A stretch of DNA of 64,000 bases from Neophaeotheca triangularis. Its lineage: Eukaryota. Under the pieces are notes generated by a model. The model saw only the letters and a program-made list of their open reading frames with translations. It was not told the DNA's origin and searched no databases. Of the stretch, positions 1-23,800 are shown piece by piece. The stretch is from contig BAAIJX010000003.1 in NCBI GenBank assembly GCA_054600435.1, positions 1 to 64,000 of the forward strand, given 5' to 3'. A program made the translations under genes and the position numbers. Each line of letters starts with the position of its first letter. The stretch's first letter is position 1.

Positions 1-120
1 ACCCTAACCCTAACCCTAACCCTAACCCTAACCCTAACCCTAACCCTAACCCTAACCCTAACCCTAACCCTAACCCTAACCCTAACCCTAACCCTAACCC
101 TAACCCTAACCCTAACCCTA
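1..120 (+). repeat. Telomeric repeat (CCCTAA)n, chromosome end
   Basis: About 20 perfect CCCTAA units from base 1; this is the canonical TTAGGG telomere of filamentous ascomycetes. Confidence 0.99.
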
Positions 121-1379
121 TAGATTACTAGAGTAAGGAACACTAAAGAATCTATAGGATCCGAGCTTATCTACCTAGATAGTAGGCCTCTAAGTACTAA
201 CCTACTAAACATATGTCCTACCTATCTTAAGCTAGTATAGGTCTAGTAGCCTTCTACATTTGCCGATTTACGCGATTCTCTCGTAGAGAGCGCTAGCTAG
301 GACACCTTAACGTAGCCCTATAGACCTTATAATAGTATAAAGGTATAGGAAGTAGAGTATATATAGACTAGGGGAGACATATTAGCTGTCCGCGAATTCG
401 TATAGTACTTTAACTATCTTAGTATCGTCTTTAAACTATATAGTACTACCTCGTATAGAGAGAAGCTATGTCTTAGCCTTTATCGACATAAGTTTTAGGA
501 TATAGCTAGAGTTACTTATAGTGTATTTTGCGAAAGGAATTCTATTATAGGAAAGAAAGTCCTTAAGCTACCTATCTAATGTAGAAACTATCCTAGTAAG
601 GTAGTACTTAGTCGAAGAATTATCGCCCTCGCTACCTATTAGTGTAAACCTACTACCTATAGAATACCTACTACCTATAGAATCGAGGAGCTCTTAGTCT
701 AAGGAGGACCGAGGCCTATAGCGAGTAGTAGTATTAGAGCCTATATTACTAGGAGTCCTATATCGGAGAGGGCTATCTAGTAGAGTCTATTATAGCTTAT
801 ATAGGGACTAGAGCTAGAGTAGGGACTAGAGCTATAGAGCTCATAAAGGTATTATGGTACCTAGTATAACACATATATCGAGGCCTTACTCTCTAGTAAT
901 ATAGCTCGGGGTTCTATCGCTATAGGACCTCGAAGTATATATAGCGAACCCTCTAGTAATAGAAGGTCGTTATAGAACGAGAGCCTCTATACTACTCGTA
1001 AGCGCTACATGTCTTAGGGATTAAGGCTCGCTATATAGTTATGAATGTTAAGTCTCTAGGCTAGCTATAGGGGAAGAAAATCCTTTAGGGATAGTAATAG
1101 TAGGGGTCCTAGTAAGGAATCTATTAACTAATATACATAGTACTATACCCTTCTATTTTCCCCTATCGATAGTAAGCTAGGCTTCCTCTACTAGTCTATA
1201 TATATGTCCTTTATTAGCTTCTACCTTATCCTTATATACCTTTATCGTCTTCTCCTTCCCCTATTCGCTATATTAGAGCTTCTTAGCGAACTAGCCCATT
1301 ACTATGTTAAAGTCCTATAGGATCACTTCTATGTCTCCTTAGATACCTTATCTAGGTCAGATTTTACATCTATAGAGTG

Positions 1380-1917
1380 TCTCGTTAACTTTATACACTA
1401 TCTATCTATATAGTAGTCCTATAGTAGCGTATTTCGAAAGGGTCTTACTAGAGTTCTTGCGTTAGAGTATACATATAACTATAGGTATGTTCTCTAAGCT
1501 ACCCTAGGCTTTAATGTAGTTCTTATAGTATCCTATAAGGTTATCGCGCTACTTAGTACCCTCCTTATATATCTTCGCTACCTTTAGGTACTTTACTACT
1601 AGTGTCCTCTCGTCCTTAATGCCTTAAAAGGAGCGCTAGAGAAGGTATTCTCCTACTAAGTATACTATATCCTCTATAGTATCTATTAACTACTCGTATT
1701 ACTCTACTACATATTCGTATACTAATCTATCTACCTCTAGGTCTATGATATAGTTAAGAGCTTATAAATACTCTACCTAGCTATTTAGAACTTGTTTTAC
1801 CTATTTAAAGAGGCTATTACTAATAGCGCGTACTACTATAAGGTGAAACTTCTAGAGTACGCTGCCTACATTTATAGCTAATAGGAGTACTTCGTTTATA
1901 TCGCTAGATAGACTCAT
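1380..1917 (-). pseudogene. RIP-inactivated ORF of unknown type pointing toward the telomere (read 1917 to ~1380; may extend further)
   Basis: The minus frame from ATG at 1917 (MSLSSDINEVLLL...) is broken only by TAG/TAA stops, as expected from RIP of CAG/CAA/TGG; no TGA over about 180 codons. Confidence 0.5.
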
Positions 1918-1984
1918 ATTATTAGTACTAGTGGCGTTTGTAGCTCACTACGGTTAGCGTAGGGCGTACTCATGTCTCTAGTTA

Positions 1985-2445
1985 GTATAGTTAGTTATGA
2001 AGTTAAGGTTATTAATAGAGGTTATAGAGTTAGGGTCATTAGTAGAGGTTATAGAGTTAGTATTAGCTATAGAGGTTATAGAGTTAGTGTTAGTAGCTAA
2101 GGTTATAGAGTTAGTGTTATTAGTAGAGATGTTATAGGTAATAAAGGTAGTAAAGGTAGTAAAGGTAGTAAAGGTAGTAAAGGTAGTAGAGGTAGTAGAG
2201 GTAGTAGAGGGAGGTGTTATCTACTAATGTGTTATCTACGAATACATAAAGTGAAGATAAATGCTACTAGTATATAAAAGTAAAGGTAAATGCTATAATG
2301 AATAAAGTGAAGATGAATACTACTAGTATGTAAAAGTAAAGGTGAATACTATAATGTATAAAGTAAAGGTAAACGCTATAATGTGTATATAAAGGTAAAT
2401 ACTACTAGCTAATAAATACATAAAGTGAAGGTAAATATAGAAAGC
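1985..2445. repeat. Degenerate tandem arrays (AGAGGTTATAGAGTTAG-type; A(A/G)AGGTAGT 9-mer; AAAGTGAAGGTAAATGCTA-type)
   Basis: Directly visible units, e.g. aaaggtagt x5 followed by agaggtagt x3 at ~2143-2210. Confidence 0.8.
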
Positions 2446-2663
2446 GAATATAGATGTTCATATATAATAGGGAGTACTTATAGTAATAGTATAGGACATC
2501 CCTTACTTCCTATCTCTTACTTCTCATGTCTCGCTACTACATCCCTTACTCCTTATATCTCGTCGCTATTATTTATAGTAGCTTCCCTCTACCTAGTAAC
2601 TATATCTACTTTGTCTTTAGCGTGAATACTAGGTTTTTAATGCTAGATTTTCAACATACCTAT

Positions 2664-3017
2664 TATCGAGTAGCGTAAGTACTCGAGAAGCTAGGAGACT
2701 AGTTTTACTTAGGGAGGTATTATTTATAGTAGTTATAAACAATATAGTAGGATTAGGAATAAGGTATAGTAGGGAATTAGGGATTATTCGTAGTAGTTAC
2801 GAATAATGTAATAGGATTAGAAATCAGTTAAGTCTGTTATAGTAGATAGAGGCTACTTCAATTAGTCATAAATCATTCTATATATGTCTATCTAGATAGA
2901 TATCTAAGATATAAGTACTAGTGTTAGGGAAGGTATAAGTATATGAAGGGAGTAATGATAAAGTAAATACTATAAAACAAACACGTCTATTAATGTAGTA
3001 TAGGAGTCACTATAATA
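2664..3017 (-). mobile_element. Solo LTR (RIP-mutated), inverted copy of 25412-25768
   Basis: Reverse-complement match to 25412-25768 (e.g. tcgagtagcgtaagtactcgagaagc); termini are RIP-altered TGTCG...CGACA. Confidence 0.8.
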
Positions 3018-3104
3018 ATAGTAGTACTAGACGCTAGTAGTGTTAATGTAAGGAGTGTCCTATATAGCGCTTAGTATATAGATAGGTAAAGTGTAATAAT
3101 ACTA

Positions 3105-3200
3105 AAGTGCTAAGGTTAGAAGTACTAAGGTTAGAAGTACTAAGGTTAGAAGTACTAAGGTTAGAAGTGCTAAGGTTAGAAGTGCTAAGGTTAGAAGTAC
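3105..3200. repeat. 15-bp tandem repeat AAGT(A/G)CTAAGGTTAG x6
   Basis: Six consecutive near-identical units. Confidence 0.9.
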
Positions 3201-3629
3201 TACTACTTAGTAGATCTCCCTAGTTATAATACATCTCCCTAGTAGTGAAGGAAGAGAGTAGTCCCTAAAGTCGCTACTTAGCTATACTTATATTAAGAAC
3301 ACTACTTCTTTTCGAAAATCTATTTCTCGATAGTCTATAGTTTAAATGTCCTAAAATTGATTTTTGACTATAGAATTAATTCATAGTCTAAATTGTGAAA
3401 TTATAGGGAAGATCTAAGGTACTAGTAAATAGCAAATTGCTACCTCTTTCTAAATTAAACTGCCCCCTTAGTCAAAATTTGGCGCTAAAATCCTCACCTA
3501 TTTTAAATCAAATTGCCGCAATTTGGTCGTGGCATTATAGTTAGAGTAGGCTACATGTATCTCTTATCAGACTCTATAGCTCTAAACGGGAGACTCTATC
3601 TCGGCTGGCTCGGCTAGCGAGCCTTGAAA

Positions 3630-3656
3630 CGCCGATAAACATTTGATCGGCGACTA
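3630..3656 (+). promoter_or_regulatory. Candidate Zn2Cys6 binding site: inverted repeat CGCCGAT-N9-ATCGGCG containing the shared ATCGGCGACTA motif
   Basis: About 290 bp upstream of the PDO ATG; the same 11-mer recurs at 6781-6791 (minus) and 9157-9167. Confidence 0.55.
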
Positions 3657-3939
3657 TATGTATGTATCGTGAAGCCCGATGTTTCGGTAGCAACTCCGTT
3701 GATCAACACAATGTCAGCAGTCTAGAGCTATCCAGGCTTCGCTACCGTTAAGCATGAGGAGCAATGTGAAGATTACAAAACGCTGTGTCTGCTGCCCCTT
3801 AACGACTAGCGCTCACCAAGTTTTACTCATACTATTGATCAGCCTTATCCACATTACCACCATCATCATTATCATCACCCATTCACCAAACCGGAGCACA
3901 ACATCTATTACCCGACCTTGAAAATCCGCTATCGAAACC

Positions 3940-4899
3940 ATGTCACCGACAGCCACTATCGACAGCGTACACCACCCGGCAACGGGAACGTGGCAGTACC
4001 TCGTCGCCGACCCCAACACATACGACGCTGTCATCATCGACCCGGTCCTCGACTTCGACGTAGCCACGCAGACCATCACCACAGCAAATGCCGAAAACTT
4101 GGTCTCAACGATCAAAGCAAAGGGCTACAACATCGTTCGCATTCTCGAAACACACGCCCATGCAGACCACTTAACCGCATCCGCGTATCTCCAGCAAGTC
4201 CTGGGCAGCATTCAAGGCTCCAAGCCGCCCATCTGCATCGGCAAGCGCATCACCGAGGTCCAGAAGACCTTTGGAGAGAAGTACGGTGTGCCGGCCAGTG
4301 AACTAGAAAATGCCTTCGACCATCTCCTCGAAGACGACGAGACCTTTCAGATCGGAGACATCCAGGCGAAGGTGGTGCATCTCCCCGGCCACACGCCCGA
4401 CCACGTCGGCTACATGATCGGAGGTGAGTTTCCGCAAACAGCAACATTCACAAATCCATTGAATCACACCCACTGATACCACCCAACAGACAATATATTC
4501 TGCGGCGACTCCGTCTTCAACGCCGACCTCGGCGTCGCGCGCTGCGACTTCCCCGGCGGCAGCGCCAAAGCTCTCTATCAGTCCACCCGTAAACTGCTCA
4601 GCCTGCCAGACCACGTCAAGATCTGGACCGGTCACGATTACCCCTCGGCCACCCGTAAGGAACCCGTACCGTTCATGAGCGTCGCGGAGCAAAGAGAGCG
4701 CAACGGCTACCTTCAGGACGAGTTGACAGAGGAGGGTTTCTTGGAGAAGCGCACGCAACGCGACTCCAGCCTCAACGAGCCCAAACTGCTGCACCAGTCT
4801 TTGCAGGTCAACATCCGCGGCGGCCGCCTGTCCAAGCCGTCATCTGAAGGGCAGCGGTTCCTCACGCTTCCGTTGCTAGTTGGCTGTGCCAAGTGGTAG
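3940..4899 (+). CDS. Persulfide (sulfur) dioxygenase-like metallo-beta-lactamase, ETHE1/SdoA/Blh type; intron 4424-4489
   Basis: Motifs TWQYLVAD, IIDPVLD, ETHAHADH and PGHTPDH; after a GT..CTGAT..CAG intron come NIFCGDS, GVARCDFPGG, GHDY and QVNIRGG. Splicing joins ORFs 3940 and 4675 in frame. Confidence 0.9.
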
Positions 4900-5679
4900 G
4901 GTGTTTTGGGTGCGATTAGTGTTGCAGAAATGGTGTTGCGACTTTTTTTTTCCGGGACATGTGTCGGAGTTGTGGATAGATTTGTTACACGAAATGCTTT
5001 TGCTGAATATCTTTCTCCAATTTGATAGGTTCTCGGCTGAATTTGATGATGAATGAAGAGCGATCTCAATGGCCAACCCTTTTCGGCCTCGCAACCTAAT
5101 CCCAACTCTGACCCGTATCATATTACTATGGATCTATCGTTTGAGATACAATTTCTATTAAGCCCACGATATCAACTAGCAGTGTTTGCGTGTACAATAA
5201 TAACTCCTTTCTAGCAGATAATTGAGAAGTATTCTGCATTTATACTACAGGTGGGATAGATTTCAGGTGTTCGAGACGTTTGCATTCATAGCAAGGTTAC
5301 AGTTTGTACTCGCGAGTCTCTGTCAAGCCGAAGTACTACTTACTACATATAATTTTTGAGCCGCCATTTCTTAGCTAACAAGCATCTGCAATTTGGTGAT
5401 TATTGTCAATGTATTAAAGCGTACGTAGCTGGGCAAAACCGGAGGTAATCACAAAGACCGTTTCTCCCGAAAGATCAAGCCGACGGCATATGAAAGAGAC
5501 GGCGAACACACAAAAGGGGCAACGGAGGCCCTCGTACCAGGTCTATCTTGTTGAACGTACATGGAGAAAAAGAAAAGAAAACCGATATATCGAACCACCC
5601 TGATGTCCAGCACTAATAGTCCAACGCCCAAAAGAAAAAAGAAAAGGTGTGAAAAGGGAAAAAAGAGAAATCATTACAA

Positions 5680-6564
5680 TCATGCGAATAGACTCCCCAA
5701 TCGCTCTTTCCACCCAACAGGCTTGGGCATGGCTTGTTGCGTGACAACGCGCATGCCCGCGAGGAAGTCCGACTCACTCGACTTTGCGTGCTTGTTCGCT
5801 GCCGTACATTGCGCCAATGTGTCGCAAGGCAGGGCTTCGCCACTGACATGTCGCCTCTCCCACCAAACACGGGTGTCGCCCGGAAGCGCCAACACGCGCT
5901 GCATCGAAGTAAACGCATCGAGGAAGCTGACGGTGTCTTCTGACGCTCCTGGGGTGGAGTGGGTGTTGTTGACGCCCTCGTCGAGGATGTCCTCGGCCAG
6001 AGTTGCGATTGAATGAGCGCCGAAAAGGTCTTTGCCGACGAGGTACGCGCGGCGATGTGGCGAGCCGAAGCCGGGCATGTGCAAGGTCGTCAGGGAAAGC
6101 CAGCCCAGCGTCACGCTCTCGCCATCGCGAAGGCCAGCGCGGATGGTTGTTGAGAAGGTACTACCGGCGCCGTGCTTACGCTGCCACTGAACTTCCAAAC
6201 CAGAGACGGTGGCTTCATTGCATAGCTGCGGCGGCCATCCTTGATATATAGAAAACTGCATCCGGAGGTACCAGACAGCGGACAGACATTGCGAGCCAAA
6301 GACGTTTGTTTCGAGAATGTAGTCGACGACGTAGCTGTGTTGTTTGACCAGGCTTACGATGGCGTCGGCTGCTTTGGTCGCCATTGCAGCTTGGTCGACG
6401 CAGCGGTCACGGACGGGGTCGAGCACTATGCAGTGCCCGGTGGTGCGATCTGCTACAACGTACTGCCATGTTTGTGTTGATGGGGAGTAGATGTTGTGGA
6501 TGATTGGTGATGCGTCGAAAGCTGCTGTTGGGGGCGGTCCTGAGAAAGCAGGTGAAGCTGCCAT
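5680..6564 (-). CDS. Degenerate PDO-like metallo-beta-lactamase paralog lacking the metal ligands (pseudoenzyme)
   Basis: Intact 294-aa ORF from ATG 6564 (the ORF-track start is TTG). N-terminus TWQYVVAD...VLDPV...YILET matches the neighbouring PDO, but HAHADH is NVFGSQC, HTPDH is FGSPH, GDS is AHS and GHDY is absent. Confidence 0.8.
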   Translation of the reverse strand: MAASPAFSGPPPTAAFDASPIIHNIYSPSTQTWQYVVADRTTGHCIVLDPVRDRCVDQAAMATKAADAIVSLVKQHSYVVDYILETNVFGSQCLSAVWYLRMQFSIYQGWPPQLCNEATVSGLEVQWQRKHGAGSTFSTTIRAGLRDGESVTLGWLSLTTLHMPGFGSPHRRAYLVGKDLFGAHSIATLAEDILDEGVNNTHSTPGASEDTVSFLDAFTSMQRVLALPGDTRVWWERRHVSGEALPCDTLAQCTAANKHAKSSESDFLAGMRVVTQQAMPKPVGWKERLGSLFA

Positions 6565-6779
6565 TGTGGGGGAGAGACCGAGGATTGTTGATATTGCATG
6601 TAGCCAGCGTGAGATGTACAATTGTGTTTGCGAGTGCTGCCGGAGAACGTTCTGGCCAGGAGTTTCGAATGTGATAATAATACAGCAATAGCCTCAAACC
6701 AGCTGGATAAGAATGGAAGTCATGTCACTTTGCCTAAGGGTCAGAATGCCGCTTTCTTGCATTTCTTTAAATGCCGAAG

Positions 6780-6792
6780 GTAGTCGCCGATG
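6780..6792 (-). promoter_or_regulatory. Shared cluster promoter motif CATCGGCGACTAC
   Basis: About 220 bp upstream of the 6564 ATG; 13/13 identical to 9156-9168. Confidence 0.55.
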
Positions 6793-7154
6793 ATCCCTTG
6801 CTGGGGTTACGCAAGACACGACACAGCCGGATCGCTACATGTGATAGTGTCCGATCTTGGTACGGGAGCTTAAATTAGAAAACACTTTGGTGAGCAAAGG
6901 CTGACTTTGGGGAATTACTCTCTCACCGGTGAGATCGCTTTTGGATGTAGAAGCCGAGGATATCACCACAAGGAATGATTTGCACCAGCAAGAGGCAGGC
7001 ATTAGTTGATAGTGGAATTCTCTCACTGGTGCAGTCATCATTTGAATTTACTGAAGCCAATGACACTGCTATAGATAGCGACTCGCAACAACGAGAGACT
7101 AGCATCGAAGAATGCTTCTCTTACTCACACGGTCGCTTTTTGGATGTATTGAAG

Positions 7155-8969
7155 CTAATTTATCTCCCCAGCGAGATGCTGGACATCGAAGAAATTGTTC
7201 TGCATGTTATCCATCGAGAACAAGTCAAACCAGAGAGGATTGCTCGCACCCTCGCCATCGTCCATGGCGCTGTCCAGAAATGAACGAGCTTGCGAAGACG
7301 TGGCACCATCGTCACTGCCTGCAGAGAATACAGTTTCCGCCACAGTCTTCAGACAACGCACCGCGTTCTGGGCTAGAACCCATGTCTCTCCCATCCGCTG
7401 CAATGCGCCAAGCATCAAGACAACTCTATCACGGTGCTGTTGCAGACAATCGAGCCCGCATTGGTGTAAATGAATCGATCCCGCTGCGAGTTGGATGATG
7501 CAGCCTAGTACCAAGCCGCAAACGAAGAAAGGCGAATGTCGTTCCAATGGCCATGGTATGGTGGCAAGGTTCGACAAATTCTTGGAAGCGGCAATCGCTT
7601 TGATGGTATGATGTCTGGATGTCGGGGCTATTTGTGTGTATCCTCTGGCGCAGGCAATATCGTCTGCGGTCGGCACAGTATCAGGTAGTGCAGACCGCGG
7701 AAAGTGCAAAAATATGCTTGCAAATGAGATGAAGCAGCGAGCTTGGAACAGCATCAGGTCGACCTCACCAGACGGACCGACGACGTCTGTGAACAGAGGC
7801 GGTAGGTTGTATTCCCAGCTGGCTATTGCGTTGTCCAGAGATTGAATACTGTCCTGGCTTGCGTCACGTGTAGCAGCGAGGGCCGAGACTCGACCGGCAA
7901 TGCGGATTGCATCTATGCGGAAACACAGAGACGAAAAGTTATTACGCTGGTCTATGGAGAAGACCCTGTTCTCAAAGGCCCGGAGAGAGGGGGGATCGGG
8001 ATCACATTGGCCTTCTTCATACACGCTTTGCGCACACGGCAACAATGGAAGCGGATTTGCGCCGGCAGTTGCTAAGGTAGGATTCCGGTGGATCGCTGAG
8101 ATGTACACATCCACAGTGTATAGTTCCCACCAGGTTCTTCGGAGGCTTTCTTCAACCAATGCCGAGTTCGCCGCATTAGTACGGGCAAAAGACGGTTCGT
8201 TCATTCCCAGCTGAATGGCGATGTTGGCGGCACGTGTGATACACAACACAGCCTCCTTAGGTTGCTGGAGGGAGTGCAGAAATATGGCGTAAAGAACCAG
8301 CGCTTGAACACGATATGGCGTCTGCTCGTCGATACTGGACATGGCAGAATGTGTGGCACTTCGAAAGGCGACAGCGTCGGCCAAAGGCGTTGTAAAGTTA
8401 TGTCCGACAAGGCAGACCATCAGGTCGAGATAGTAAGGGTAATTTTGGGTATGGTAGAACGAGCTCGGTACCAGAAACGGATGAGCAGGGTAGAAGTTGG
8501 TATAAAAGAGAGCGACCAACCGCTCACGGTCGGCGGTGTTGAGTGACCAGGTATATGGGGCGGCTGGGGTCAGACATTGCAAAGATGGCAGGTTGTGGTG
8601 ATCGAGCGACTGCATTGTGTTGACGAGTGGTGAGGCCAGATTGGTGCGGACAGGGTCAATTGTGGTGGCGGCGGGTTGGCTGTCTACAACGTTTCCATTG
8701 TTGTTGCTGTTCCCGTTAAGATTGTCGTTATTGTTGTTATTGTCGCTCTCGTTGGCAGAGTGGTTTGTGTTTGTCGGCATTCCATTACGTTTGCTGCGGC
8801 GGGCACGACCTCGGCGCGAGGCCGTGTACACACACGTGAGGCCTTCCTGGACGCAACGGCGACATATAGGTGAGGAGCCATCGCATTTGAGGTGTTTGCG
8901 GCGGCATTCATCGCATGCCAGGGGTGCCGGGCGATGCGCGCCTGTGCGTGGCGACGATGCGCTGCTCAT
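7155..8969 (-). CDS. Zn(II)2Cys6 transcription factor with fungal-specific middle homology region
   Basis: ACDECRRKHLKCDGSSPICRRCVQEGLTC Zn cluster; FYPAHPFL and EESLRRTWWELY middle-region motifs; likely ATG at 8969. Confidence 0.93.
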   Translation of the reverse strand: MSSASSPRTGAHRPAPLACDECRRKHLKCDGSSPICRRCVQEGLTCVYTASRRGRARRSKRNGMPTNTNHSANESDNNNNNDNLNGNSNNNGNVVDSQPAATTIDPVRTNLASPLVNTMQSLDHHNLPSLQCLTPAAPYTWSLNTADRERLVALFYTNFYPAHPFLVPSSFYHTQNYPYYLDLMVCLVGHNFTTPLADAVAFRSATHSAMSSIDEQTPYRVQALVLYAIFLHSLQQPKEAVLCITRAANIAIQLGMNEPSFARTNAANSALVEESLRRTWWELYTVDVYISAIHRNPTLATAGANPLPLLPCAQSVYEEGQCDPDPPSLRAFENRVFSIDQRNNFSSLCFRIDAIRIAGRVSALAATRDASQDSIQSLDNAIASWEYNLPPLFTDVVGPSGEVDLMLFQARCFISFASIFLHFPRSALPDTVPTADDIACARGYTQIAPTSRHHTIKAIAASKNLSNLATIPWPLERHSPFFVCGLVLGCIIQLAAGSIHLHQCGLDCLQQHRDRVVLMLGALQRMGETWVLAQNAVRCLKTVAETVFSAGSDDGATSSQARSFLDSAMDDGEGASNPLWFDLFSMDNMQNNFFDVQHLAGEIN

Positions 8970-9155
8970 CGACTCTACTCTATTGTAAAAGTACCGTAAA
9001 CGGAGTGCTGATGTAATGAAAGTCCGGACACTGATAATGATGCGGATCGGAATGATCGGTAGGGTACTGGTAGATAGGGAGTGGTATAGTGTTTTGGACA
9101 GTATAGGCAAGTATGGGTCCTAGGGATACTGTAGTTTGCCCGCGGCGATTCCCGC

Positions 9156-9168
9156 CATCGGCGACTAC
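9156..9168 (+). promoter_or_regulatory. Shared cluster promoter motif CATCGGCGACTAC in the divergent TF/microprotein promoter
   Basis: Identical to the reverse complement of 6780-6792; an extra CGGCGA lies at 9143. Confidence 0.55.
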
Positions 9169-9376
9169 TTCTGAGTTCAAATTCATCAGGAGACGCTCGA
9201 ACCACAGTGCGAGTAGAATGTGGCACGAGTAGAATGTGGTACGATCTCCCGATGAGACTTAATCTAGAGGTATTCGTCATCCGCATGGTCTGCAACCCCG
9301 TCAACATCAAGTTTTGTCCTCTACGTCCTTCGACCTCATCCAGCAACGACAACCACCCCATCAATCAACAGCAAGC

Positions 9377-9732
9377 ATGTGCAAGAAAGCAACATGTTCC
9401 GAGTGCGGTTAGTACCTACCTATATCCTCTCATCACTCGCACTGCTTTCGCCATCTCACCCCGCGTTACCTCAAGTCAATAACATAACCATGACCTGTAC
9501 TCACTCTGTTCTCGCAGGCAAGCCATCCTGGTGGGGATGTGGAAATGTATCCTCATCACCCTCTGCAAATCTGCCCGATTCAGCCGACGGCAGACAAACA
9601 ACTACTAACACCCTCCACCAGCACATCCCGAGCGTCATGGACTCGGTTCCCGAAAGTGACAGGTGTCAGTGCGGCCCCAAGGTTGAGGTGGACGGGAAAC
9701 AGTACCCTCGCAAAGCCGAAAAGGCAGACTGA
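9377..9732 (+). CDS. 56-aa Cys-rich microprotein; exons 9377-9407, 9518-9546, 9622-9732
   Basis: Introns GTTAGT..CAG (9408-9517) and GTATCC..CTAAC..CAG (9547-9621) splice to MCKKATCSECGKPSWWGCGNHIPSVMDSVPESDRCQCGPKVEVDGKQYPRKAEKAD*. Confidence 0.8.
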
Positions 9733-10324
9733 GAGCGGGTCTCGTGCCTTGAGAGTGAAATTGACGAGGTGATGATTACTATGTACAGGTACGGGTACGG
9801 TGCGTGTGTGATGTTGGCGTTGTTGCGAGCTTCTAGATTGCAAATCAAGTCTTTCGGAACATCTCACGTTGAGCAGCATCTCATTGGAACATCACGTTGA
9901 TGATTCACTTGAGCTACCGAGAACACTATATGCGAAGGCTTAATCTACATGTAGGTAGTGGCATGCTAAGACAGATTAATGTGCAATTCTTCGGTGTCGC
10001 ACTGGAACTAGTGTATGGTTACTCTACACCAGGTACTGTACCAGAGTCGCTAATGCTACCACATGTGGAAGCTTGACCCAGTGAAGCGGAGAATCTATTA
10101 TTTTGTAGTTCACTAGCATCTCACTACCACTCCCCACGATTGTAATGTGCGAGAGTCGCCGGTCCCACTAGAAACTCCATGTATTTCATCGCGCGCGCTC
10201 TGAGCCGCCACCCATAAAAATCTCGTAACATACGAATCGTCTTTCACAATATGCCCCAACGTCCGGACCCAAGCATTGCTCTCAAGGAAGAAAAAACCGA
10301 TTAAGCATGCATTGGTCTTATGGT

Positions 10325-11185
10325 CTAATTGGACAGCGCCTCCGCACTCAAACCCTCCTCCCGCTCCCCCGGCGAGATCAACATCGCAACAATCACCACC
10401 ATCTTCACCGCCGCAGAAATCATGATAGCATCTGGCGACCCGATCGCCTTTCGAGTGTAAGCCCCAGCAAAGCTCCCCGCAACTAGCGTAGTCAAGAACA
10501 GTGCGCGCCGATTCCTCGGTCTATTATGCCGGGCGAAAAGGTCCTCGTCTATGAGGAAATCCACCCAAGCCGCCGTCGCCATGGCAGTAGTGATCTCAGG
10601 AATCTTGAATGCCCTCGCAGCAGCAACCTGGGACCCCGACGCAAAAGCAAGCAGCGCCAGTGCAGCGCGAGCCCAAGCCCCCGACTGATGCGTTCCATGA
10701 ACGTATTGGATCCAGGCGGAGCCGGCGACCATAAGCGTCTGCGCGAGTGCTATCGCGACCTGCCACGCTCGCCGCTGCTTTTGGACGAATGTTCCCAGAT
10801 GCCCGGTGAACATTGCTCCGGCGAGGAAGGCTCCGAGGCTTACGCCTGTATTTGTGGCGTCGAAGAGGGTTCCTGCCTGGCCTGCCAGGGCGACGGCGAG
10901 GACAACGGTGTTTCCGGTCTGATTCGAGGCGAAGCAGTGGAAGTCTGGGTAAGAGATTGCGTCTTGGATGCCGATTGCGAAGGTCAGGAGGAGGAGTTGG
11001 GCTTCGACGAAGGTGTTGACGTGGAGGTCGACGAGCCAGTAGTTTTTGAAGCCATTCCCGGAGGACGGTGGCTGGTGTTTTCTTGGGTTTAATGTCGCTG
11101 GTTCGCAGTCGGGTTGTTGTAGTTTGTTTTGTTGATAGTCTTGCGGAACCTGCTGATATTTTTCATGTTGTGTCTTGTTGCTCAT
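10325..11185 (-). CDS. DUF1275/YoaK-family membrane protein
   Basis: GIQDAISY..FHCFASNQTGNTV and EITTAMAT motifs with about 6 hydrophobic segments; ATG at 11185 (the ORF-track start is TTG). Confidence 0.85.
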   Translation of the reverse strand: MSNKTQHEKYQQVPQDYQQNKLQQPDCEPATLNPRKHQPPSSGNGFKNYWLVDLHVNTFVEAQLLLLTFAIGIQDAISYPDFHCFASNQTGNTVVLAVALAGQAGTLFDATNTGVSLGAFLAGAMFTGHLGTFVQKQRRAWQVAIALAQTLMVAGSAWIQYVHGTHQSGAWARAALALLAFASGSQVAAARAFKIPEITTAMATAAWVDFLIDEDLFARHNRPRNRRALFLTTLVAGSFAGAYTRKAIGSPDAIMISAAVKMVVIVAMLISPGEREEGLSAEALSN

Positions 11186-11340
11186 GTTCGCTGTCAAGCT
11201 CGATGGTGCAGGTATTCACCCAGCCTGGAAGCGAACGGTTCACATCGCGAGTATATTACTACCCATGCTCGGGACTGCAAAGTCTAACTTCATGCAAGAG
11301 ACGATCATCTTTGACGAGCACGGTACGCCATCTGAGATCC

Positions 11341-11392
11341 CCGTTTTGACGCCGTTTTTGTCGCCGTTCTTAATCGCCGTTTTTGATCGCCG
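11341..11392. promoter_or_regulatory. Tandem (T)CGCCG array in the DUF1275/YeeE bidirectional promoter
   Basis: ccg-ttttga-cgccg-tttttg-tcgccg-ttcttaa-tcgccg-tttttga-tcgccg; the core is the reverse complement of CGGCGA in the shared motif. Confidence 0.45.
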
Positions 11393-11679
11393 AACTCTGC
11401 CTCGAAGCAACCATGGCCCTAAGCGGGACAAGCGAGACTCCATCACCACCCGGGGGCTGCCTCACGCCGACATTTGTAACGCTGAGTGATATGGTGACTA
11501 GGCGATGTCTTAACAAGGGGTTCTGCCCTGCCATGTGTTGTATAAAGTCAAAGCATTGCCACGTATTGGAAGGACTGTATTCATCAACGTCAATCACATC
11601 CCACAACGCATCGGGAAGCACAGAACCAACCAACTAAGAACCCTTCTACAAATCAACAACCGAGATCTCTTACCACATC

Positions 11680-12751
11680 ATGTTGTCCGACTCAGCCGCG
11701 ACAGCGATCACAGGCGCAGCATTTGGTGCGTCCCTGGCAGCATCAGGCGTCTACCTGCCATCCGTTATCATCGATCAGTTTCATCTGACGGACTTCCACA
11801 TGTTCCATGTGTTTGCAACAGCCATGGGATCGAGTGCGTAAGTGTGACCGGACACCCAACATCGAAAAGATTACCTCCAGAAGTTGAATGAAGCTAACTT
11901 GCATCCTCCCTCACAGAATCGCAATGCTCTTTCTCGACAAACTCAACATCGTCCAACGACCAGTCAAATCGAACTCCACGCTCGGATGGTCGTCGTATGA
12001 CGCAAACATCGCGGGTGGTATTTTGGTCGGCGTAGGAATGGCGTTGTCGGGCGCATGTCCCGGCACAGTCCTCGTGCAACTCGCCCAGGGGATCCCTTCT
12101 GCAAACGCCACTGCTCTGGGTGCACTTCTCGGCGCCGGGATTTATGTCCAGACACAAAATCGGCTGAAGAACATGTTCCGACGACAGGGTGCTGCGGAAC
12201 CGTCCACTCGCAATTTGATCATAGCCGAGGCGTTGCGCATCCCGGAAGTAGTGTTGTACCCCTTGTTCGGACTGGCGATCATGGCAGTACTGCGCTTCAC
12301 TGGAGCCAAAATTGGAAACTCTCTCGTGGCGCCTATCATCGGCGGTCTGCTCATCGGATCAGCACAAGCACTGTCACTGGTACTCACATCCAGTCCCCTC
12401 GGCGTGTCATCAGTATACGAGCACTTGAGCAGGCATATAGTCCAAGTCCTCGCAGGGAAATTGGGGAAGTCTGCCCTACCGTCCAAACCCATCATTTTCT
12501 CCTTGGGAGTCATCGCGGGCAGCTTTGCCTTGCTGCAACAAAAGCCCGGCACAAGCCTCGCCGTGTCTGACGCGGGTATTCCGGCCTGGCAGGCGTTTGT
12601 CGGAGGTACCGTTTTGGCGTTTGGTGCAAGATTGGGCGGAGGCTGCACTTCTGGACATGGTCTGTCGGGGCTCAGCGCAATGTCGTTTTCGAGTCTGATT
12701 ACCGTGGCTTGTATGTTCGGCGCTGGAATCTTGACGCGGACGTTGATGTGA
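11680..12751 (+). CDS. YeeE/YedE-family sulfur-compound (thiosulfate-type) transporter; intron 11838-11916
   Basis: Exon 1 MLSDSAATAITGAAFGASLAASGVY... splices in frame (GTAAGT..CTAAC..CAG) to the ORF with GILVGVGMALSGACPGT and FGARLGGGCTSGHG, the conserved Cys motifs of YeeE. Confidence 0.9.
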
Positions 12752-14087: not shown

Positions 14088-15025
14088 GGAACTACTAGTT
14101 CTTCGCACTAGAAATGGTGGTATCTAGATAACACGGCGCATAGGAAACGGTGGGTTAAGGCTATTCTACTATGTCTCGACATCCTTAATAAGGTAATATG
14201 TCTCTCGTTTACCCTCTAGCTATAAGAGGTCGCTCTACTTCTAGAGGTTAATGAATTACTAGTAGTAAAGGTCTGACCTACTAATAAAGTAGACAATATT
14301 GTGAAGCTTACTAATTAGTCCCTTCTTATACTAGGTAAGGAGCTCTACTTTAGTAGTACTTTAATAGTTATTAACCTTCATCTTTAAAGGTATCTAGATC
14401 TAAGCTAAACATTATAGACTAATGATAAGGTTAAGAATATAGCTACTACAATAGATCTATTACTTATACTAGTTAAAAAAATGCTCTTTACTAAGTTGCT
14501 CTAGATAGGTCTAGTTATTAGATGTATTATTAGTTATAATATTACTAAGTTTAGTACTATAGAGGTTAAATTTAGCGAGGACCTCGCTAATAGTGTCTAT
14601 AATATTCACGCTAGTATAAGAGCCCTTCTACTATAGTATAGTAAGTAAGATAGTTATAGGCTTACTAGAGTTATTAGTAAAGTACATAATAACGTTAAGG
14701 AGTAAGAGCTTATTATTAGAGGTCTAGAGGTTAAAGGAGATATTGATTTTAGTAATAGAGCTACATAACTACTTAGTGACTTTACTAAGTACTTTGTTAT
14801 AGATCTTACCTATTATAGTATTAATAGTTTAGTGACTAAGTATAATAGGTCTAATATATAGATTAAGGTATAGAGTATATATTAGAGCCTTTATGATTCG
14901 AGTTTATTAAAGGAGATATTATTAGTAATAATCTAGTCATATAATAATGTCTCGAATATTAGTAGATTAAAGGTAATAGTAGCTATATTATAAGTCTCTA
15001 TAACTATATCTATACTATTATAGAG

Positions 15026-15248
15026 TGTAAGACCGAGACTATAACTCGGTTAGGATCACGGTATAGCGAGGGCGGAACGTAATAATAGTAATAATAGTAA
15101 TAGTCCTTTAATATAGAAACTATTCGATAGTAGACAGGAGACTTCACTATTAGCTATCTCATATACTTTTATAGTATATATGCTTAGTACTCCTAAGCTA
15201 CTCTATAGCTTAGGCCGCTAATATCTTACTAGCGCTATGGTCATAACA
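15026..15248 (-). repeat. 3' LTR of the Gypsy element
   Basis: TGTAAGACCG...CATAACA; matches 22575-22797. Confidence 0.92.
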
Positions 15249-15965
15249 ATTGCCTCCCTCTCTAGTAGCTCGTCCTCGAGCTAGTACTCGTAAACATAGT
15301 TATGTAGGACCCTAGTATAGTACGTATGTTAGTATCCTCATTAAAAACCTTAGTAGTGTTTTCACTAAGGAAAAGAGTGATACTATATACTACTATTACA
15401 CTATTAGGTCCCTAGAGTGAATTTACCCTAAACCTAAGTTCGCTATAGCGAAGTGCGTTATCATCGCGATAAGCAGTATTAACGGCTATGTGGCGGTGAT
15501 CTAGTAGGGCGGTAATTACTAGTAGAGCCTTAGCGTGATTATGCTATAATTATATAGAGATGACCTACTAGCTACTTCTCTTTCGAAGACTTCCTCCTTT
15601 TAACCATAATAATAATAACAGTCTCTACTCCGTCGTAGTCCCTTTAGCGTACTAGTCTGCCTTTTAACAAGATAACCTTCTTTATTAGTAAGTAAACTTT
15701 AGTTCTTTATGTACGTACTACTATTAGTCTATATATAGTTCCTATTATTCTTTGACAATAAAACTAACCTTACCTAGTTTCCTATTATTACCTACTTCTA
15801 GTAACCTTTCGAAAACCTTACCTAGCGCGGTTTAATAAAAAGGCGCTCCTTATACCTCTAATACCTTCTTTCCTTCTTTATCGACCACTTTTTTTCGCGA
15901 TCTCGCTATCGCCCTTTTTTCGCTAGCTTTATTCACTACCTTCATTACTCTACTACTATTCTATC

Positions 15966-17312
15966 ATGTCTCTATATGTTAGTAAGTGTCTAAAGGCGCT
16001 AGTCGACTATAGTATTAGCGCTATAGCCGTTAATAGTAAGGGTGCCTTTACTATAGATAGAGCGATTATCGCTAAGGGAGTCTTTATAACTAAGGGCTAC
16101 TATCGGATCGATACTAGTAGTTTTATAGAGGAGGAGTTAAAGGATCTAGTTAACGAGTCAAAGTCTATTAAGAAGGATTTGAAGTTAGAGGGTATCGGTA
16201 CAAAGCGCGCTATAGCTATTAAGGGCGCGGGCTCGAAACGTAAGCATGCTATAGGTAATAATAGTAAGGAGAGTAAGTCTAATAAGGGCGCGCTAGCGTT
16301 CCGTCGCTTCGCTAACATTAATAAGGGTAAGGAGCTTACTCTTATCGATGTTAATCGCCCTCGTTATTCGCGCTACATTAAGGAGCTCTTAAGTAACATT
16401 CTCGAGGGGTCTATCGACTTTATCCCGCTATGTAAGATAGTGCCTTCTATGACTAGATCAGTATACAACACTTATTCTAACATGAAGTAATCATGCCTCG
16501 AGGTAAGCCTACTATAGCTCTATTATCATTACGAGTTTTCACTAATGTCTCTTTAGATCATTCCTAACCTCATGAGCTAGCGTAGTTACTATGTCTAGAT
16601 AAATCATGCCGCTATACTCTATTACGCTAATCGCGCTAGTAGTAGCGCTACTAGTTCGCTAATATACCTTAAGGTCTTAGAAGTTAACACTAAGGTCTCC
16701 TAGTACTTCTATAAGAACAACTACGCCGTTATTCTAATAGGGGGCCTTTATCGTTCTAGTCCTAATAACGATAAGATCTTAACTCTACACAACATAGTAT
16801 GCCTAATCATAGATTAAACTCGCGACTTCGCCATGATCGTTACCGATACTATCGAGAGGCTTATTACTATCTACTACGTAGAAATGTCTATACTTATTAG
16901 CGAGATGTCTAGCCGCTATCACGCCGCGCCTTCTTCTTTACCGATATGCGATATACCTAGTCTTAGTAAGTCGCCGCCTTACGATAAGACTATTAGTACG
17001 CTAGCGCTAGTAGTAGCTCCTAAGGTACTAGTAGTAGGGACTAAGGGTCTAGTTTAGAAGAGTAGTAGGGACGATGCTAGTATGCCGCTAGAGGTGTCTT
17101 CTAGTAGAAGTTCTTCTTCTTCGCTAGAGTCGGATAATAAGGAGGATAAGGCTCCGAAGAAGCCTTCTAGTCTCTTAGGCTTCCTTAGGATTCGCCGTAG
17201 GGACGACGTCGCTCTATTAGTAAGAGAGAATGTAGAGGAGTCTATTAGTACTAAAGATTAGCTAGAGGCTAATATTACTAAGGTTTCGAAGGAGTTAGAT
17301 ACTAGGGCTTAA
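15966..17312 (+). pseudogene. RIP-mutated antisense gene inside the Gypsy element; intron 16503-16556; Zn-cluster-like Cys motif
   Basis: ORF 15966 plus a GTAAGC..CTAAT..TAG intron continues in frame into ORF 16833 with only TAA/TAG stops. YxxY-x18-C-x10-YxxY-x6-C reverts to a six-Cys motif under G>A RIP. Confidence 0.65.
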
Positions 17313-20300
17313 GCGTTTATTAGATCATTTATGTACTCTCTATAAGCGCCGTTATCCTATCGCTAGCCTATCTATAGTAGCTATTAATTAAGAAGCTTAT
17401 GTACTATGTCCTTTTCCTATAGTTTTCTTCTTTTTCCCTAGCTATATATTCTCGACATTCTTTTTCTTTAGGCTTTATGTTTTCTTTCTATGCTTCTTTT
17501 TCGCGCTACTATAGGTCTACTAGTGTTACTTAAAGTCTATAATCGCTTCTTTTATGTTATTTAGATACTTCTCTTTCTCCTAGGTTCCCTCTTCTATTAG
17601 CTAATCTTTCTAAAGAACATAGTATGTCTTATTACTATTATCGTTAAGACCGGATGCCGTTATTTCGTCGACGACCTATTTATCGCCTCTATTGACTTCT
17701 CGCTCTACTAGTAGTATAAAGTCAGTATGTTAGTAGTATAGTTCGAGGAGAGAGACATGGAAGATGTTATAGATCTTTCTAAGGTATAGAGGTAGGGCTA
17801 ATTAGTATACTTGTTTTCAGACCCTTATTATGATTTAGAAGGGCCCTATATAACGCGAGGAGTACTTTTTTGTTAGTCTTAATGTTTTCAGGTTTTTCGC
17901 GGAAATAAGAACCTTATCGTCGATACTAAATACTATAAGATCGTGTTTTCAGTTATAGTATTCCGCCTACTTACTAATAGTATACCGAATGTTGTCCTCG
18001 ACGACTTCGCGAATTGCTTTCTAGTTTTTAGTTCTTTCTTAGAGGTTAGGGATTGTCAGTTCGCTACCTCCCTCTCTAACGATGTTATCCATAATACTAC
18101 TAGGCCGTTAGGGCTCTACCCTATAGATAGTAAAGAATAGCGACACTTTAGTCAATACGCTTATACTATTATTATAGGTAAATTCGGCCTATATAAGGTA
18201 ATAAGGCTAATCTGTCTATATAAAGTTAACAAAACATCATAGATACTATTCTATTATTTAGTTTTGCCTCTCTATCTACCTATCGGACTAAGAGTAGTAT
18301 GCTGTCGATAACTTATGCTTAGTTTTCTAATACTAAAGGAGCTCTATCTAAAATATAGAAGTGAATATACTACCTCTATTAGTTACAATCGAATTTAGCT
18401 TACCGAACTTAGTAAGAATTTCGTGCTCGAAAATATTAGCTAGTTAGTAGGCCCCTATCGCTTCATTAATAGGGATATACCTCGCGAACTTTAAGAAGCG
18501 GTTAATAATAACTAATATAGAATCGACTATTTCGCCCTTATATGTCTCTACGATAGGCAACTTAACTACTATGTCTATAGACTAATGCTTAAAGATCTCA
18601 TTAGTACCTAGAACTCTTAGCGATTATAATATGCTATAGGGCTAGTAGTAGCGCGACTTATGTCTTTAGTAGGTATTACACCTAAGGACATACTCTTCGA
18701 CATCCTTAGTCTACTTAGACTACCAAAACTCCTTATAGAAGATAGCTTTAGTCTTCCCTACTCCTAGGTGTCCTACTAATAGGTCCTCGTAGTAGTAGCT
18801 TAGTATAGTAGCCTATAGGCTTTCTACTAGTAGTACATACACCTTTCTATTAATCTTAAGAAGTCCTATAAAACTAACCGACTACATAGGCGTAGCGCTA
18901 TTAGTATCTCTATAGTACTATCCCTCGTCGATCTCTTTACGAATACGTTTAGTAAAGGGGTCTCCCTACTATATACATAACATATCCGCTCTAAGGTCAA
19001 TTCGGTCTACTACTATGTTAGGCTCTCTAATGTCTAGCTCGGTAATAGTAAGTATACCTAGCTACTTACCTATAGGGTCATAATAGGTTAGCGCTACTAT
19101 AGCGATAGAGCTAGTCAGGTTTAGTTCACCTCCCCCTTAGAGCGTTCGCTTAGTGTATACGGTATTATTACTCTAAAGCTTATTGTTTAGAGGACTAGTG
19201 TCTCTAGTAGCTATCGTGTAGCCTACTAGCGAGGTAGCTAATGCCTAGTAGTTTACTAGCGTAGCATACCCTAGCGACATAGATAGGATCTCTACTCTAT
19301 CTTTAGTAGCTATCGTGTAGCTACTCGCTAGAACTTTAGCGGCCTTATAGAGGCCTACTAGGGGAGCGAAAAGCCTAGTTAATGTAGGTAGTATTTCCGC
19401 CCTACTTAGTTCTCTATTAGCCTCTATGTTAGGACGGCGCGAGAGCCTATCTACTCTAGGGTTTAATTTACCTTTATAGTATATGATCTTGATGTCGTAT
19501 TACGATAGCTCTTCTACGGTATATGCTTAGTAGCCTAACAATTTCTTTATTAATAGGAAGTATTTCAGATTATTATGATCTATAAGTACCTAAACTTTAC
19601 TCTTAGCTAACAATATGTAGTGCTACTATTAGCGTATCGCCTCGACAATAGCGAGTAGTTCCTAATCATGTACTAGATATCGTAACTCTAGCCCTTTAAG
19701 CTTCTTAGAGTAGTATACGACCGGATGCTATAGCGTGTCTAAGTACTTCTATATAAGTATACCTCCTAATATGTATTCTAATATATCGGTCTTAAGGTAG
19801 GTCTCTAGTATAGTATTAAAGTGCTGTAGTACTAGTGCTAAAATGAAGCTATACTTTAACCTTTTAAAGGATTTTTAGGCATCTTTACCTAGTAGCTACT
19901 ATTTACTACTACTACACTATAGGTAGTCCATAAGGGGAGTAGTAATCTTTATATATCCCTCGATAAAGCAATAATAGAAATTCGCGAATCCTAGGAATAC
20001 TTAGAGTTCTTTTAAGGACTTTAGTATTAGCTAATCTTAGACTATAGCTACCTATAGGGGCTCTATCGCTACTCTAGTAGAGTTAATGACGAAACTAAGG
20101 AATCTAATCTCTTAGACTATGAACTCGCATTTCTCGAGACTAGTATACAGCTTAGTATTAGCGAGCTAATAGTAGACTGCTCAAATGTGTTCATAGTATT
20201 CTACTTCGGTATAGGAATAGATAAGAACGTCATCTATATATACTATGTAGTAGTGGTTAACTAGCTCTATAAGTACCTTATTAATAAAGGCCTAAAACGA

Positions 20301-22574: not shown

Positions 22575-22797
22575 TATAAGACCGAGACTATAACTTAGTT
22601 AGGATTACGGCATAGCGAGGGCGGAACATAATAATGGTAATAATAGTAATAGTCCTTTTATATAGAAACTATTTAATAGTAGATAGGAGACTTCACTATT
22701 AGCTATCTTATATACTTTCGTAGTATGTATACTTAGTACTCCCGAGCTACTCTATAGCTTAGGCCGCCGATGTCCTACTAGCGCTACGGTCGTGACA
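22575..22797 (-). repeat. 5' LTR of the Gypsy element
   Basis: T(G>A)TAAGACCG...CGTGACA followed by TSD TAGAG. Confidence 0.92.
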
Positions 22798-23329
22798 TAG
22801 AGGTAGTTATCTAGTAGGCTAACCTTCTTCTTAAGAGAGCCTTCTTTACTAATATAGTAGTGTCGCTCTATATAGTGTATACTAGTAGTTAAGGCTTTAT
22901 CTGTTTTAAAGAGGTGTTTTTTACTAGTATAGTTTTAGTAATACCTCTTATATAGCTAGAATTCCTTCTATCTTTATTTACTCTAATTAGTAGCTATAGC
23001 TATATGTATAGATCTAGCTCTCTACCTTTTAGTTATGTTGTAGTATATAGAAGCCTTAAAGTCGCGACTAAATAAGGCCTTTATATCCTATAAGGTCATG
23101 TCTAACTAGCTATTTTCATTTTTAAGCTTATATATATAATTAGTAATGTCTATCTCTCTTAACTAAGGAACTATAGTAGAGATATAGTCGTTAAGACTAT
23201 ATACTTTATTAGTATCTTTAGTAGTATTACATCCTACCTATTAGATGTCGTTAGCTTCTACTTAGAAAAAGTCATTCTTCTTTAATACTTACCTCTTATG
23301 ATTCTCTAGTATATCCTAGTAGGCTACCT

Positions 23330-23800
23330 TATAACACTACTATTACTTTCTAACCTTAAAAGAATTACTAGTAAGATAATTTTCTATCTAGATCTTATTA
23401 CTTATATATAGCCTTTTTATATAGACATTACCCTTTTGTTTCTATCGATTAACCTAATAGTGTTTTTACTTATAGTGTCTCTACATTAGATATAGTATAT
23501 AGTATATATATAAATAGAGATCTCCTTAACTACTAGTCTTAGTATATCTTAGCCTATTAAAGTAGACTAGGAGGCTAAATACTAGAGACATATTAGGCTA
23601 TAGGTAAATAATATCCTTATAGTCTTTAGCTAGCTTAACAACATTTTTGACCTTAGAGATAATGTCTTGATGTTACTATAGGGTAAGGCATTTATTATAG
23701 ACTTATAAATACATCTTTATCTATAAAGGAATTACTACATATTGATAAGCTAAGCATATAATGGCTTAATAGTAGACATCGATCTTAAAAGGAAAGTAGG
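23330..23800 (-). pseudogene. RIP-degraded DUF3505-domain gene (N-terminus of telomere-linked helicase-type proteins)
   Basis: Minus frame reads AIICLAYQYVVIP..IKMYL...HQDIISKV...LLVYFNRLRY...LM*RHYK*KHY*VNR*KQKG, which de-RIPs to the DUF3505 pattern IC..CQYAV.P...HL...LPVY.GL.C...MQRHC...H.WVN. Confidence 0.6.

Follow-up and report, generated by a model that had tools for sequence, protein, structure and literature searches.

The first 64,000 nucleotides of contig BAAIJX010000003.1 from Neophaeotheca triangularis (assembly GCA_054600435.1), a halotolerant black yeast according to titles and abstracts, were analyzed as one stretch, here called the window. Near its telomeric end lie six genes, G1 to G6, which encode a metallo-beta-lactamase (MBL) of the persulfide dioxygenase (PDO) type (G1), a PDO paralog without metal ligands (G2), a Zn2Cys6 transcription factor (G3), a putative small protein rich in cysteine (G4), a DUF1275/YoaK-family membrane protein (G5) and a YeeE/YedE membrane protein (G6) (Table 1). 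An earlier reading made from the letters without database searches (the sequence-only reading) had claimed six genes at these positions; this is borne out, with gene models refined by sequence reading and a script check, and its family assignments for G1, G2, G3, G5 and G6 were upheld by Pfam and by matches to chains of the Protein Data Bank (PDB). We consider it probable that the genes of the island are co-regulated and form a fungal module that handles sulfane sulfur or thiosulfate and oxidizes glutathione persulfide (GSSH). The evidence consists of family memberships, conservation of catalytic and pathway residues, linkage that recurs in other fungi and a promoter element shared within the island.

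G3 and G4 are divergently oriented with 408 bp between them, as are G5 and G6 with 494 bp between them, so that the two divergent pairs seen among the last four genes in the sequence-only reading stand; G1 and G2 are convergent.

Table 1. Genes, promoter elements and borders of the telomere-proximal island, in window positions (RIP, repeat-induced point mutation).
Feature	Description	Position	Strand	Basis or remark
G1	MBL/PDO, 297 amino acids, one intron	3940-4423 + 4490-4899	+	identical to database protein P0241
G2	ligand-less PDO paralog, 294 amino acids, single open frame	5680-6564	-	matches PDB PDO chains
G3	Zn2Cys6 transcription factor, 604 amino acids	7155-8969	-	Pfam Zn_clus + Fungal_trans
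G4	putative 56-amino-acid protein, six Cys, three-exon model	9377-9407, 9518-9546, 9622-9732	+	sequence reading, script check
G5	DUF1275/YoaK-family membrane protein, 286 amino acids	10325-11185	-	identical to database protein P0121
G6	YeeE/YedE (Sulf_transp), 330 amino acids	11680-11837 + 11917-12751	+	identical to database protein P0001
Promoter element	ATCGGCGACTA	3646..3656	+	exact match; about 285 bp upstream of G1 ATG
Promoter element	ATCGGCGACTA	6781..6791	-	exact match; about 220 bp upstream of G2 ATG
Promoter element	ATCGGCGACTA	9157..9167	+	G3/G4 divergent promoter; 188 bp from G3 ATG, 210 bp from G4 ATG
Tandem cores	four (G/A)(A/T)CGCCG, 12-13 bp apart	11348..11392	+	G5/G6 divergent promoter; direct reading
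Telomere repeat	(CCCTAA)n, 20 units	1..120		direct reading; regex run length 120
RIP-like AT-rich block	telomere to island	121..3600		GC 0.345, TpA/ApT 1.93, (CpA+TpG)/(ApC+GpT) 0.31
RIP-like AT-rich block	centromere-side island border	14101..27000		GC 0.344, TpA/ApT 1.79, (CpA+TpG)/(ApC+GpT) 0.36

The predicted persulfide dioxygenase

Pfam recognizes the Lactamase_B domain in G1 (8.9e-10). Among the sequences of PDB chains, exon 1 matched 9g8t (2e-30), 4ysk (6.5e-30) and 4efz (1.9e-26), the next chain following at 1.3e-8; human ETHE1 was matched at 1.6e-7 and glyoxalases II at 2e-4 or weaker. Exon 2 matched the same three chains (2.3e-29, 2.3e-29 and 1.1e-26, respectively), GloB at 5.5e-4 and ETHE1 at 5.6e-3. 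Chain 9g8t is PaPDO from P. aeruginosa, for which GSSH dioxygenase activity and an H2S phenotype have been reported and in which His71, His146 and Asp163 are the metal ligands and Arg174, Arg244 and Arg247 bind glutathione (GSH) (PMC12856154). Counted along the alignments, all six of these positions face identical residues in G1. When 22 fungal homologs were aligned, H72, H74, D76 and H77 of the HxHxDH motif were invariant, the positions of the metal triad were invariant or nearly so, and R179, R249 and R252 were nearly invariant.

The alignments of G1 reach residues 285-295 of 9g8t, 4ysk and 4efz, which means that G1 has the long C-terminal extension by which type II enzymes form their dimer. 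The NCBIfam model Blh matches G1 with its dioxygenase half only (profile positions 142-420 of 423): the rhodanese part is absent from the match, and no Rhodanese domain was found in Pfam scans of the island or the window. All the sequence tests that could be applied place G1 among the type II PDOs. It belongs to a family that is very large in Ascomycota, where 5351 of 6120 scored candidates were matched at E<=1e-5. Like the biochemically characterized SdoA/PpPDO2 from P. putida (4YSK) and PaPDO (9G8T), it combines the PDO fold with a 2-His-1-carboxylate triad, three arginines for GSH and a C-terminal extension; it differs from these enzymes in being fungal, in having one intron and in having a neighbor, G2, of the same fold without the ligands.

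The membrane proteins

G6 is by sequence a protein of the YeeE/YedE family (Pfam Sulf_transp, PF04143, 2.3e-29; 103.4 bits versus a cut-off of 27). Its residues C100 (in GACPG) and C296 (in GGCTSGHG) are invariant in 18 fungal and metagenomic homologs and align, in a weak match to 6LEO (E 1e-4), with C91 and C293 of StYeeE. Both of these cysteines are essential in StYeeE, in which C22 is dispensable, whereas C22 is essential in the YeeE of E. coli (Tanaka et al., PMC7449682).

G5 was recognized as DUF1275 (PF06912) with 1.2e-35 and 123.5 bits versus a cut-off of 25.4. Its predicted structure (pLDDT 75) was compared with 48,161 chains, and nearly all of the 50 matches listed were transporters of the major facilitator superfamily (MFS), each matched across a single half of six helices (Z 14.4 to 9.8); because helical bundles can score high by arrangement alone, this likeness is a statement on the fold only. 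G5 is described here as modelled as one six-helix MFS-like half. The titles and abstracts of the 12 papers listed as mentioning DUF1275 assign no function to it.

The probable regulator and the promoter elements of the island

G3 has a Zn2Cys6 cluster (Zn_clus, 7.9e-11, 42.3 bits) and a fungal middle homology domain (Fungal_trans, 8.1e-14, 51.8 bits). Comparison of the k-mers in the four promoter regions of the island yielded the 11-mer ATCGGCGACTA, of which there are three exact copies in the 64-kb window, all in promoters of the cluster; 0.04 were expected, and none of 100 shuffles reached three. Chance hardly explains this triple. The promoter between G5 and G6 contains four tandem cores, which on the other strand read CGGCG(A/T)(C/T), and a match to TCGGCGA at 11387 (minus strand). 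Classical CGG-Nx-CCG dyads were also looked for, and no spacing stood out in 13 promoter regions. The shared element suggests co-regulation of the island genes, and we infer that G3 binds to it.

Linkage in other fungi and in metagenomes

Among named genomes the best 120 matches each for G6 and G5 had six assemblies in common; this comparison covers the YeeE-DUF1275 pair only, since the best-120 list for the PDO had no assembly in common. In five of the six assemblies the locus tags of YeeE and DUF1275 differ by three at most, and the contigs that carry them are equal in length: Elasticomyces elasticus (LTS10_010847 and 010846), Meristemomyces frigidus (LTR62_000889 and 000888, plus 000892), Umbelopsis vinacea (INT44_004723 and 004724), U. 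isabellina (INT43_002202 and 002205) and Cryoendolithus antarcticus (B0A48_18660 and 18658). The exception is Recurvomyces mirabilis, where the two genes are far apart. A further ten pairs of matches agree in the length of the longest contig.

From metagenomes the loci of the best 80 of at least 563 YeeE matches, obtained in an alignment-based scan, were fetched and searched by tblastn, with profile hidden Markov models built from our own alignments and, for some, with Pfam. Thirteen of the 80 are of fungal type (an intron in YeeE or fungal neighbors), ten of them with at least 5 kb of flank. In four of these ten YeeE lies beside a PDO and/or DUF1275, and three of the four have a PDO together with a G3-like Zn2Cys6 factor, which is to say that the factor is present in all three fungal-type loci with PDO and YeeE. 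Loci L005 and L010 each contain YeeE, PDO, DUF1275 and a G3 homolog (5e-58 and 1e-55, respectively) within about 9 kb, their PDO being 54-57% identical to exon 1 of G1. In L008 a G3 homolog (1e-38) is accompanied by genes for a SulP permease and a TPMT-family protein and by a divergent PDO/YeeE pair, and in L003 DUF1275 adjoins YeeE. G3 gave no match to the Fungal_trans gene beside YeeE in L009, which indicates that the three matches to G3-like factors are specific.

The sequence-only reading had named unlinked homologs in other fungi as the first of the findings that would speak against it; with linkage in five of six assemblies and four of ten loci that objection falls. The linkage of YeeE with its partners is recurrent but facultative.

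The promoters of the linked loci were compared with those of the island. For the 8-mer core TCGGCGAC, which was derived from the window, L008 has five copies where 0.83 are expected, and four of the five are within the SulP-PDO and PDO-YeeE intergenic regions. Common to L005 and L010 is TCGGGGTCT, found twice in each of them at about 100 bp upstream of the PDO gene and once more in L005 upstream of YeeE. A promoter motif across these lineages is suggestive, not established.

Two further observations concern the surroundings of YeeE in these loci. In L008 the PDO-YeeE pair is flanked by the genes of a SulP-family sulfate permease (4412-6394) and a TPMT-family methyltransferase (12115-12785), from which it appears that the sulfur theme is wider than the genes seen in the window. 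In L004, where YeeE stands alone, fragments of a retroelement integrase and of SH3-like type (3350-4598) lie upstream of it at a distance of a few kb, beside a DUF1264 gene.

The ligand-less paralog and the putative Cys-rich protein

In alignment G2 is about 25% identical to G1. It matched the same three PDB chains with E values from 7.9e-14 (9g8t) to 2.5e-10, and to its predicted structure (pLDDT 85) the closest chains found by Foldseek were 4ysk, 9g8t and 4efz (E about 2e-16). Compared with G1, THAHADH is changed to TNVFGSQ, PGH to PGF and the ligand Asp of CGD to the His of GAH; HDY and the C-terminal extension are also absent from G2. Sequence and model together characterize G2 as PDO-like in fold and not a PDO.

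In a full HMMER scan with G2 the threshold of E<=1e-3 was passed by 491 representatives and that of E<=1e-30 by 21, identity among the top 21 being 33-64%. Of 17 relatives that were aligned (set P0361-P0382), the nearest 12 share the losses of the metal ligands and also have motifs peculiar to them, among these SAAWYLRMQ and FGAHS. Because the relatives have both the losses and these motifs in common, G2 was read as a member of a conserved non-catalytic family with the PDO fold; it may be a binder or a regulatory partner. A decaying pseudogene had also been considered and was ruled out by the open frame of 294 residues, by relatives of 33-64% identity with motifs of their own and by the 11-mer of the cluster upstream of the gene. 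In the relatives a His (in FGAHS) is conserved exactly at the position of the metal-binding Asp of true PDOs, and two adjacent Arg are conserved after the former PGH loop; His and Arg-Arg together hint at a ligand site that is retained or altered.

The model for G4 has no internal stop; its two introns begin with GTTAGT and GTATCC, respectively, and both end with CAG, and there is a TACTAAC branch site at 9603-9609. No homolog of the predicted protein was found in Pfam, NCBIfam or the PDB sequences, nor by tblastn in the 80 fetched loci, where nothing appeared at E<=1 except one match at chance level. The public locus tags run from g3837 (G1) to g3841 (G6), which is space for five genes, so that G4 seems to be unannotated publicly; it is regarded here as a candidate gene.

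Position of the island in the window

The sequence-only reading had called the cluster telomere-proximal, correctly so: the window begins with the telomere repeat. The 10.5-kb island (3.6-14.1 kb) is of normal composition, with a GC content of 0.523, a TpA/ApT of 0.65 and a (CpA+TpG)/(ApC+GpT) of 1.20, and is bordered on both sides by AT-rich blocks. In the blocks these indices are RIP-like, matching what is expected after repeat-induced point mutation. The telomere-side block also contains short minisatellites (about 2000-2220 and 3100-3200). Two open frames of 93 and 120 codons that overlap one another lie at the island's inner edge (13553-14087) and may be one spliced gene; no Pfam family was found in them and no homolog among the 80 fetched loci.

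Between 27 and 64 kb Pfam recognized a sugar transporter, a BBE oxidase, a ZIP transporter, RF-1, CorA, a ceramidase and others, none of them related to sulfur. An open frame of 1102 codons at 58148-61453 combines NPHP3_N (an NACHT-type NTPase) with DUF7791, the usual make-up of a fungal NLR-like protein.

Comparison with known systems

The bacterial systems with which the island is best compared are operons that combine a PDO with YedE or YeeE, which we take to be represented by BigR-blh in Xylella and Agrobacterium, by yedE1-yedE2-pdo2 in Acinetobacter and by the CstR-type cst operons. Such arrangements were also met in the metagenomes: of the 67 loci that were not assigned to the fungal type, 24 have, by profile search, an MBL open reading frame directly upstream of YeeE, and in all five of those that were sampled this is an MBL-rhodanese fusion with two Sulf_transp genes of half size (a split YedE) after it. 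The closest prokaryotic YeeE relatives among those fetched are split YedE pairs encoded immediately downstream of a gene for an MBL-rhodanese protein (PDO type), the bacterial arrangement to which the sequence-only reading had pointed. DUF1275 occurs in none of the 67 and in three of the 80 loci overall, all three fungal. For the split YedE1E2 from Cupriavidus it was reported that it imports zero-valent sulfur, which is converted to GSSH and oxidized by the co-expressed PDO (PMC10812762).

The island has in common with the bacterial operons that a PDO is linked to a Sulf_transp membrane protein and to a dedicated regulator. It differs from them in that its genes are separate, eukaryotic, intron-bearing and read from divergent promoters rather than as an operon, in that the regulator is a Zn2Cys6 protein and not a persulfide sensor of the ArsR or CsoR type, in that no rhodanese domain is present, whereas all five bacterial loci sampled have one, in that YeeE is a single fused chain, and in the additional DUF1275 protein and ligand-less PDO paralog. 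Pfam scans of the open reading frames of the island revealed no repressor domain of the ArsR, BigR or CsoR type. The sequence-only reading had regarded the island as a eukaryotic counterpart of the bacterial operon. Of this the combination of PDO and YedE, seen likewise in the bacterial loci, and the fungal regulator, which travels with PDO and YeeE, stood; the rhodanese and the ArsR/BigR repressor of the bacterial systems have no equivalent, and the gene content varies.

With the thiosulfate importer YeeE/TsuA from Spirochaeta thermophila (6LEO) and with YedE1E2 from Cupriavidus G6 shares the Pfam family and the two central cysteines of the pathway; it differs from the former in the points raised below, and no YeeD or TusA partner was found. 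With fungal clusters governed by a Zn2Cys6 factor the island shares the embedded regulator gene, the divergent promoters, a repeated CGG-containing site and the subtelomeric position; it differs from them in its content, which is the handling of inorganic sulfur and neither secondary metabolism nor nutrient catabolism. In the literature searched no fungal cluster of this gene content is described, as the sequence-only reading had supposed; the only trace is a remark, made on a STRING view, that YedE and genes of sulfur metabolism co-occur "in bacteria and fungi" (PMC10812762).

Proposed function and alternatives

The following scheme gives the proteins substrates, a direction of transport and roles, and is to be read as a proposal. 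G6 would pass zero-valent sulfur or thiosulfate across a membrane via its two conserved loop cysteines, and in the cytosol this sulfur would end on glutathione as GSSH. G1, as a non-heme-iron type II PDO, would then catalyze the reaction GSSH + O2 -> sulfite + GSH. G5, being an MFS-like half of six helices, presumably forms pairs with itself and would carry a small sulfur anion, most simply the product sulfite or thiosulfate. G3 would switch on the set, including its own gene, via sites of the type TCGG(C/G)G(A/T)C. G2, with the conserved PDO fold and without the metal site, would be non-catalytic and maybe a binder or regulatory partner.

Several findings weigh against this interpretation. 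In a FastTree built from 123 sequences the PDOs linked to YeeE are not grouped together (three changes), nor are short and long forms cleanly split; the linkage is then either old and often lost or was assembled more than once. Six of the ten fungal-type loci (L004, L006, L007, L009, L011 and L039) have YeeE without any partner, and L005 and L010 are related, blastn aligning 2 kb only at 84% identity, so that they are not fully independent cases. In none of the 80 fetched loci was a separate gene like G2 (by tblastn and profile models) or like G4 found. In G6 the position of C22 of StYeeE is occupied by Tyr, which leaves two of the three pathway cysteines, and its scores of 27.8 and 17.8 bits are so far under the cut-offs of 400 and 645, respectively, of the NCBIfam TsuA equivalogs that G6 is not classed as a thiosulfate importer. 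Pfam scans of the island and the remaining window showed no rhodanese, SQR or sulfite oxidase. As to the promoters, the motif was found post hoc and its degenerate form was fitted to two lineages, the 8-mer TCGGCGAC is absent from the promoters of L005 and L010, and the merged 9-mer TCGGSGWCT matches L008 once only, which is chance level.

The same parts could serve another purpose. In poor habitats thiosulfate, polysulfide or elemental sulfur might be scavenged as a nutrient, with import by YeeE, conversion of sulfane sulfur to sulfite by the PDO and delivery of sulfite to sulfite reductase and cysteine synthesis, detoxification being secondary. We regard this as a possible, less probable explanation. 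It agrees with the functions of characterized YeeE/YedE proteins, which import thiosulfate for growth (PMC7449682) or, as YedE1E2, zero-valent sulfur (PMC10812762), with the gene for a SulP sulfate permease in L008 and with the concentration of the named homologs, among the matches listed, in oligotrophic black fungi dwelling on rock, in ice or in salt. Elemental sulfur is moreover reported to enter yeast rapidly, where with GSH it gives rise to GSSH (PMC8945482), and an importer is thus not obviously needed for defense. On the other side, bacterial PDO-YedE operons have been attributed to sulfide and persulfide stress (PMC10812762; PMC5823870), and a pathway-specific factor in a subtelomeric position fits conditional stress genes equally well. 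That the known YeeE-type proteins are importers and that L008 has a sulfate permease gene leans to scavenging; that the bacterial operons are stress-induced leans to defense. The data agree with scavenging and with detoxification equally well. For a protection against plant sulfur defenses, as suggested in the sequence-only reading, there is no particular support, the host being a halotolerant black yeast.

Other explanations change the enzyme, the element or the coherence of the island. G1 might in vivo be a glyoxalase-II-like thioesterase or another MBL hydrolase, in which case the island would handle some other glutathione conjugate: PDOs and glyoxalases II have the fold and the HxHxDH motif in common, and database labels of homologs read "glyoxylase-like" and "Glyoxylase B2". 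We hold this to be very unlikely, because glyoxalase II chains were matched at 2e-4 or weaker versus 2e-30 for proven PDOs, because G1 retains the metal triad, all three arginines for GSH and the type II extension, and because PDO and YeeE are linked here in the way that PDO and YedE are in bacteria. Equally improbable in our view is that the genes are chance neighbors stranded between repeat-degraded blocks on a subtelomeric island and devoid of a common function. The loci with YeeE alone, the absence of G2 and G4 from related loci and the non-monophyly of the linked PDOs would agree with it, but the same families are found linked again in distantly related fungi, among them the mucoromycete genus Umbelopsis, the same Zn2Cys6 lineage accompanies PDO and YeeE in three of three loci, the unrelated factor in L009 remaining unmatched by G3, and the exact 11-mer stands in three cluster promoters and nowhere else in 64 kb. 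Least probable of all, and hardly to be reckoned with, is a module for selenium or tellurium oxyanions instead of sulfur. One branch of YedE is tied to selenium metabolism, the NCBIfam model selen_YedE_FdhT giving a weak match (8.7e-5) to G6, and L008 has a TPMT-family methyltransferase gene beside YeeE, the TPMT family including tellurite and selenite methylases. However, the selenium-family score is 21.8 bits versus a cut-off of 350, the PDO has no known role with selenium, and TPMT is found in only one of the four linked loci.

The proposal of a co-regulated module for sulfane sulfur handling and GSSH oxidation can be carried further. The island could be part of a persulfide-responsive regulon of fungi that works without a sensor of the bacterial type: proteins of the G2 family would bind GSSH as sensor or co-regulator and so control the action of G3 at TCGG(C/G)G(A/T)C sites, and DUF1275 would export the product sulfite or thiosulfate. 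We consider this extension unlikely; if true, it would provide a first role for the widespread DUF1275, that of a long-sought exporter.

Implications

In fungi the handling of sulfide and persulfide is known mainly from the mitochondrial SQR step. For S. pombe a review states that the steps after Hmt2 are unknown (PMC8310684). If the proposed function is correct, the conserved, regulator-containing module of PDO, YeeE and DUF1275 would be a defined downstream route in fungi. Eukaryotic YeeE proteins would for the first time have a genomic context, and DUF1275 a function that can be tested; the module would further offer a candidate transcription factor together with its candidate binding site, and it would define a conserved family of metal-less proteins with the PDO fold.

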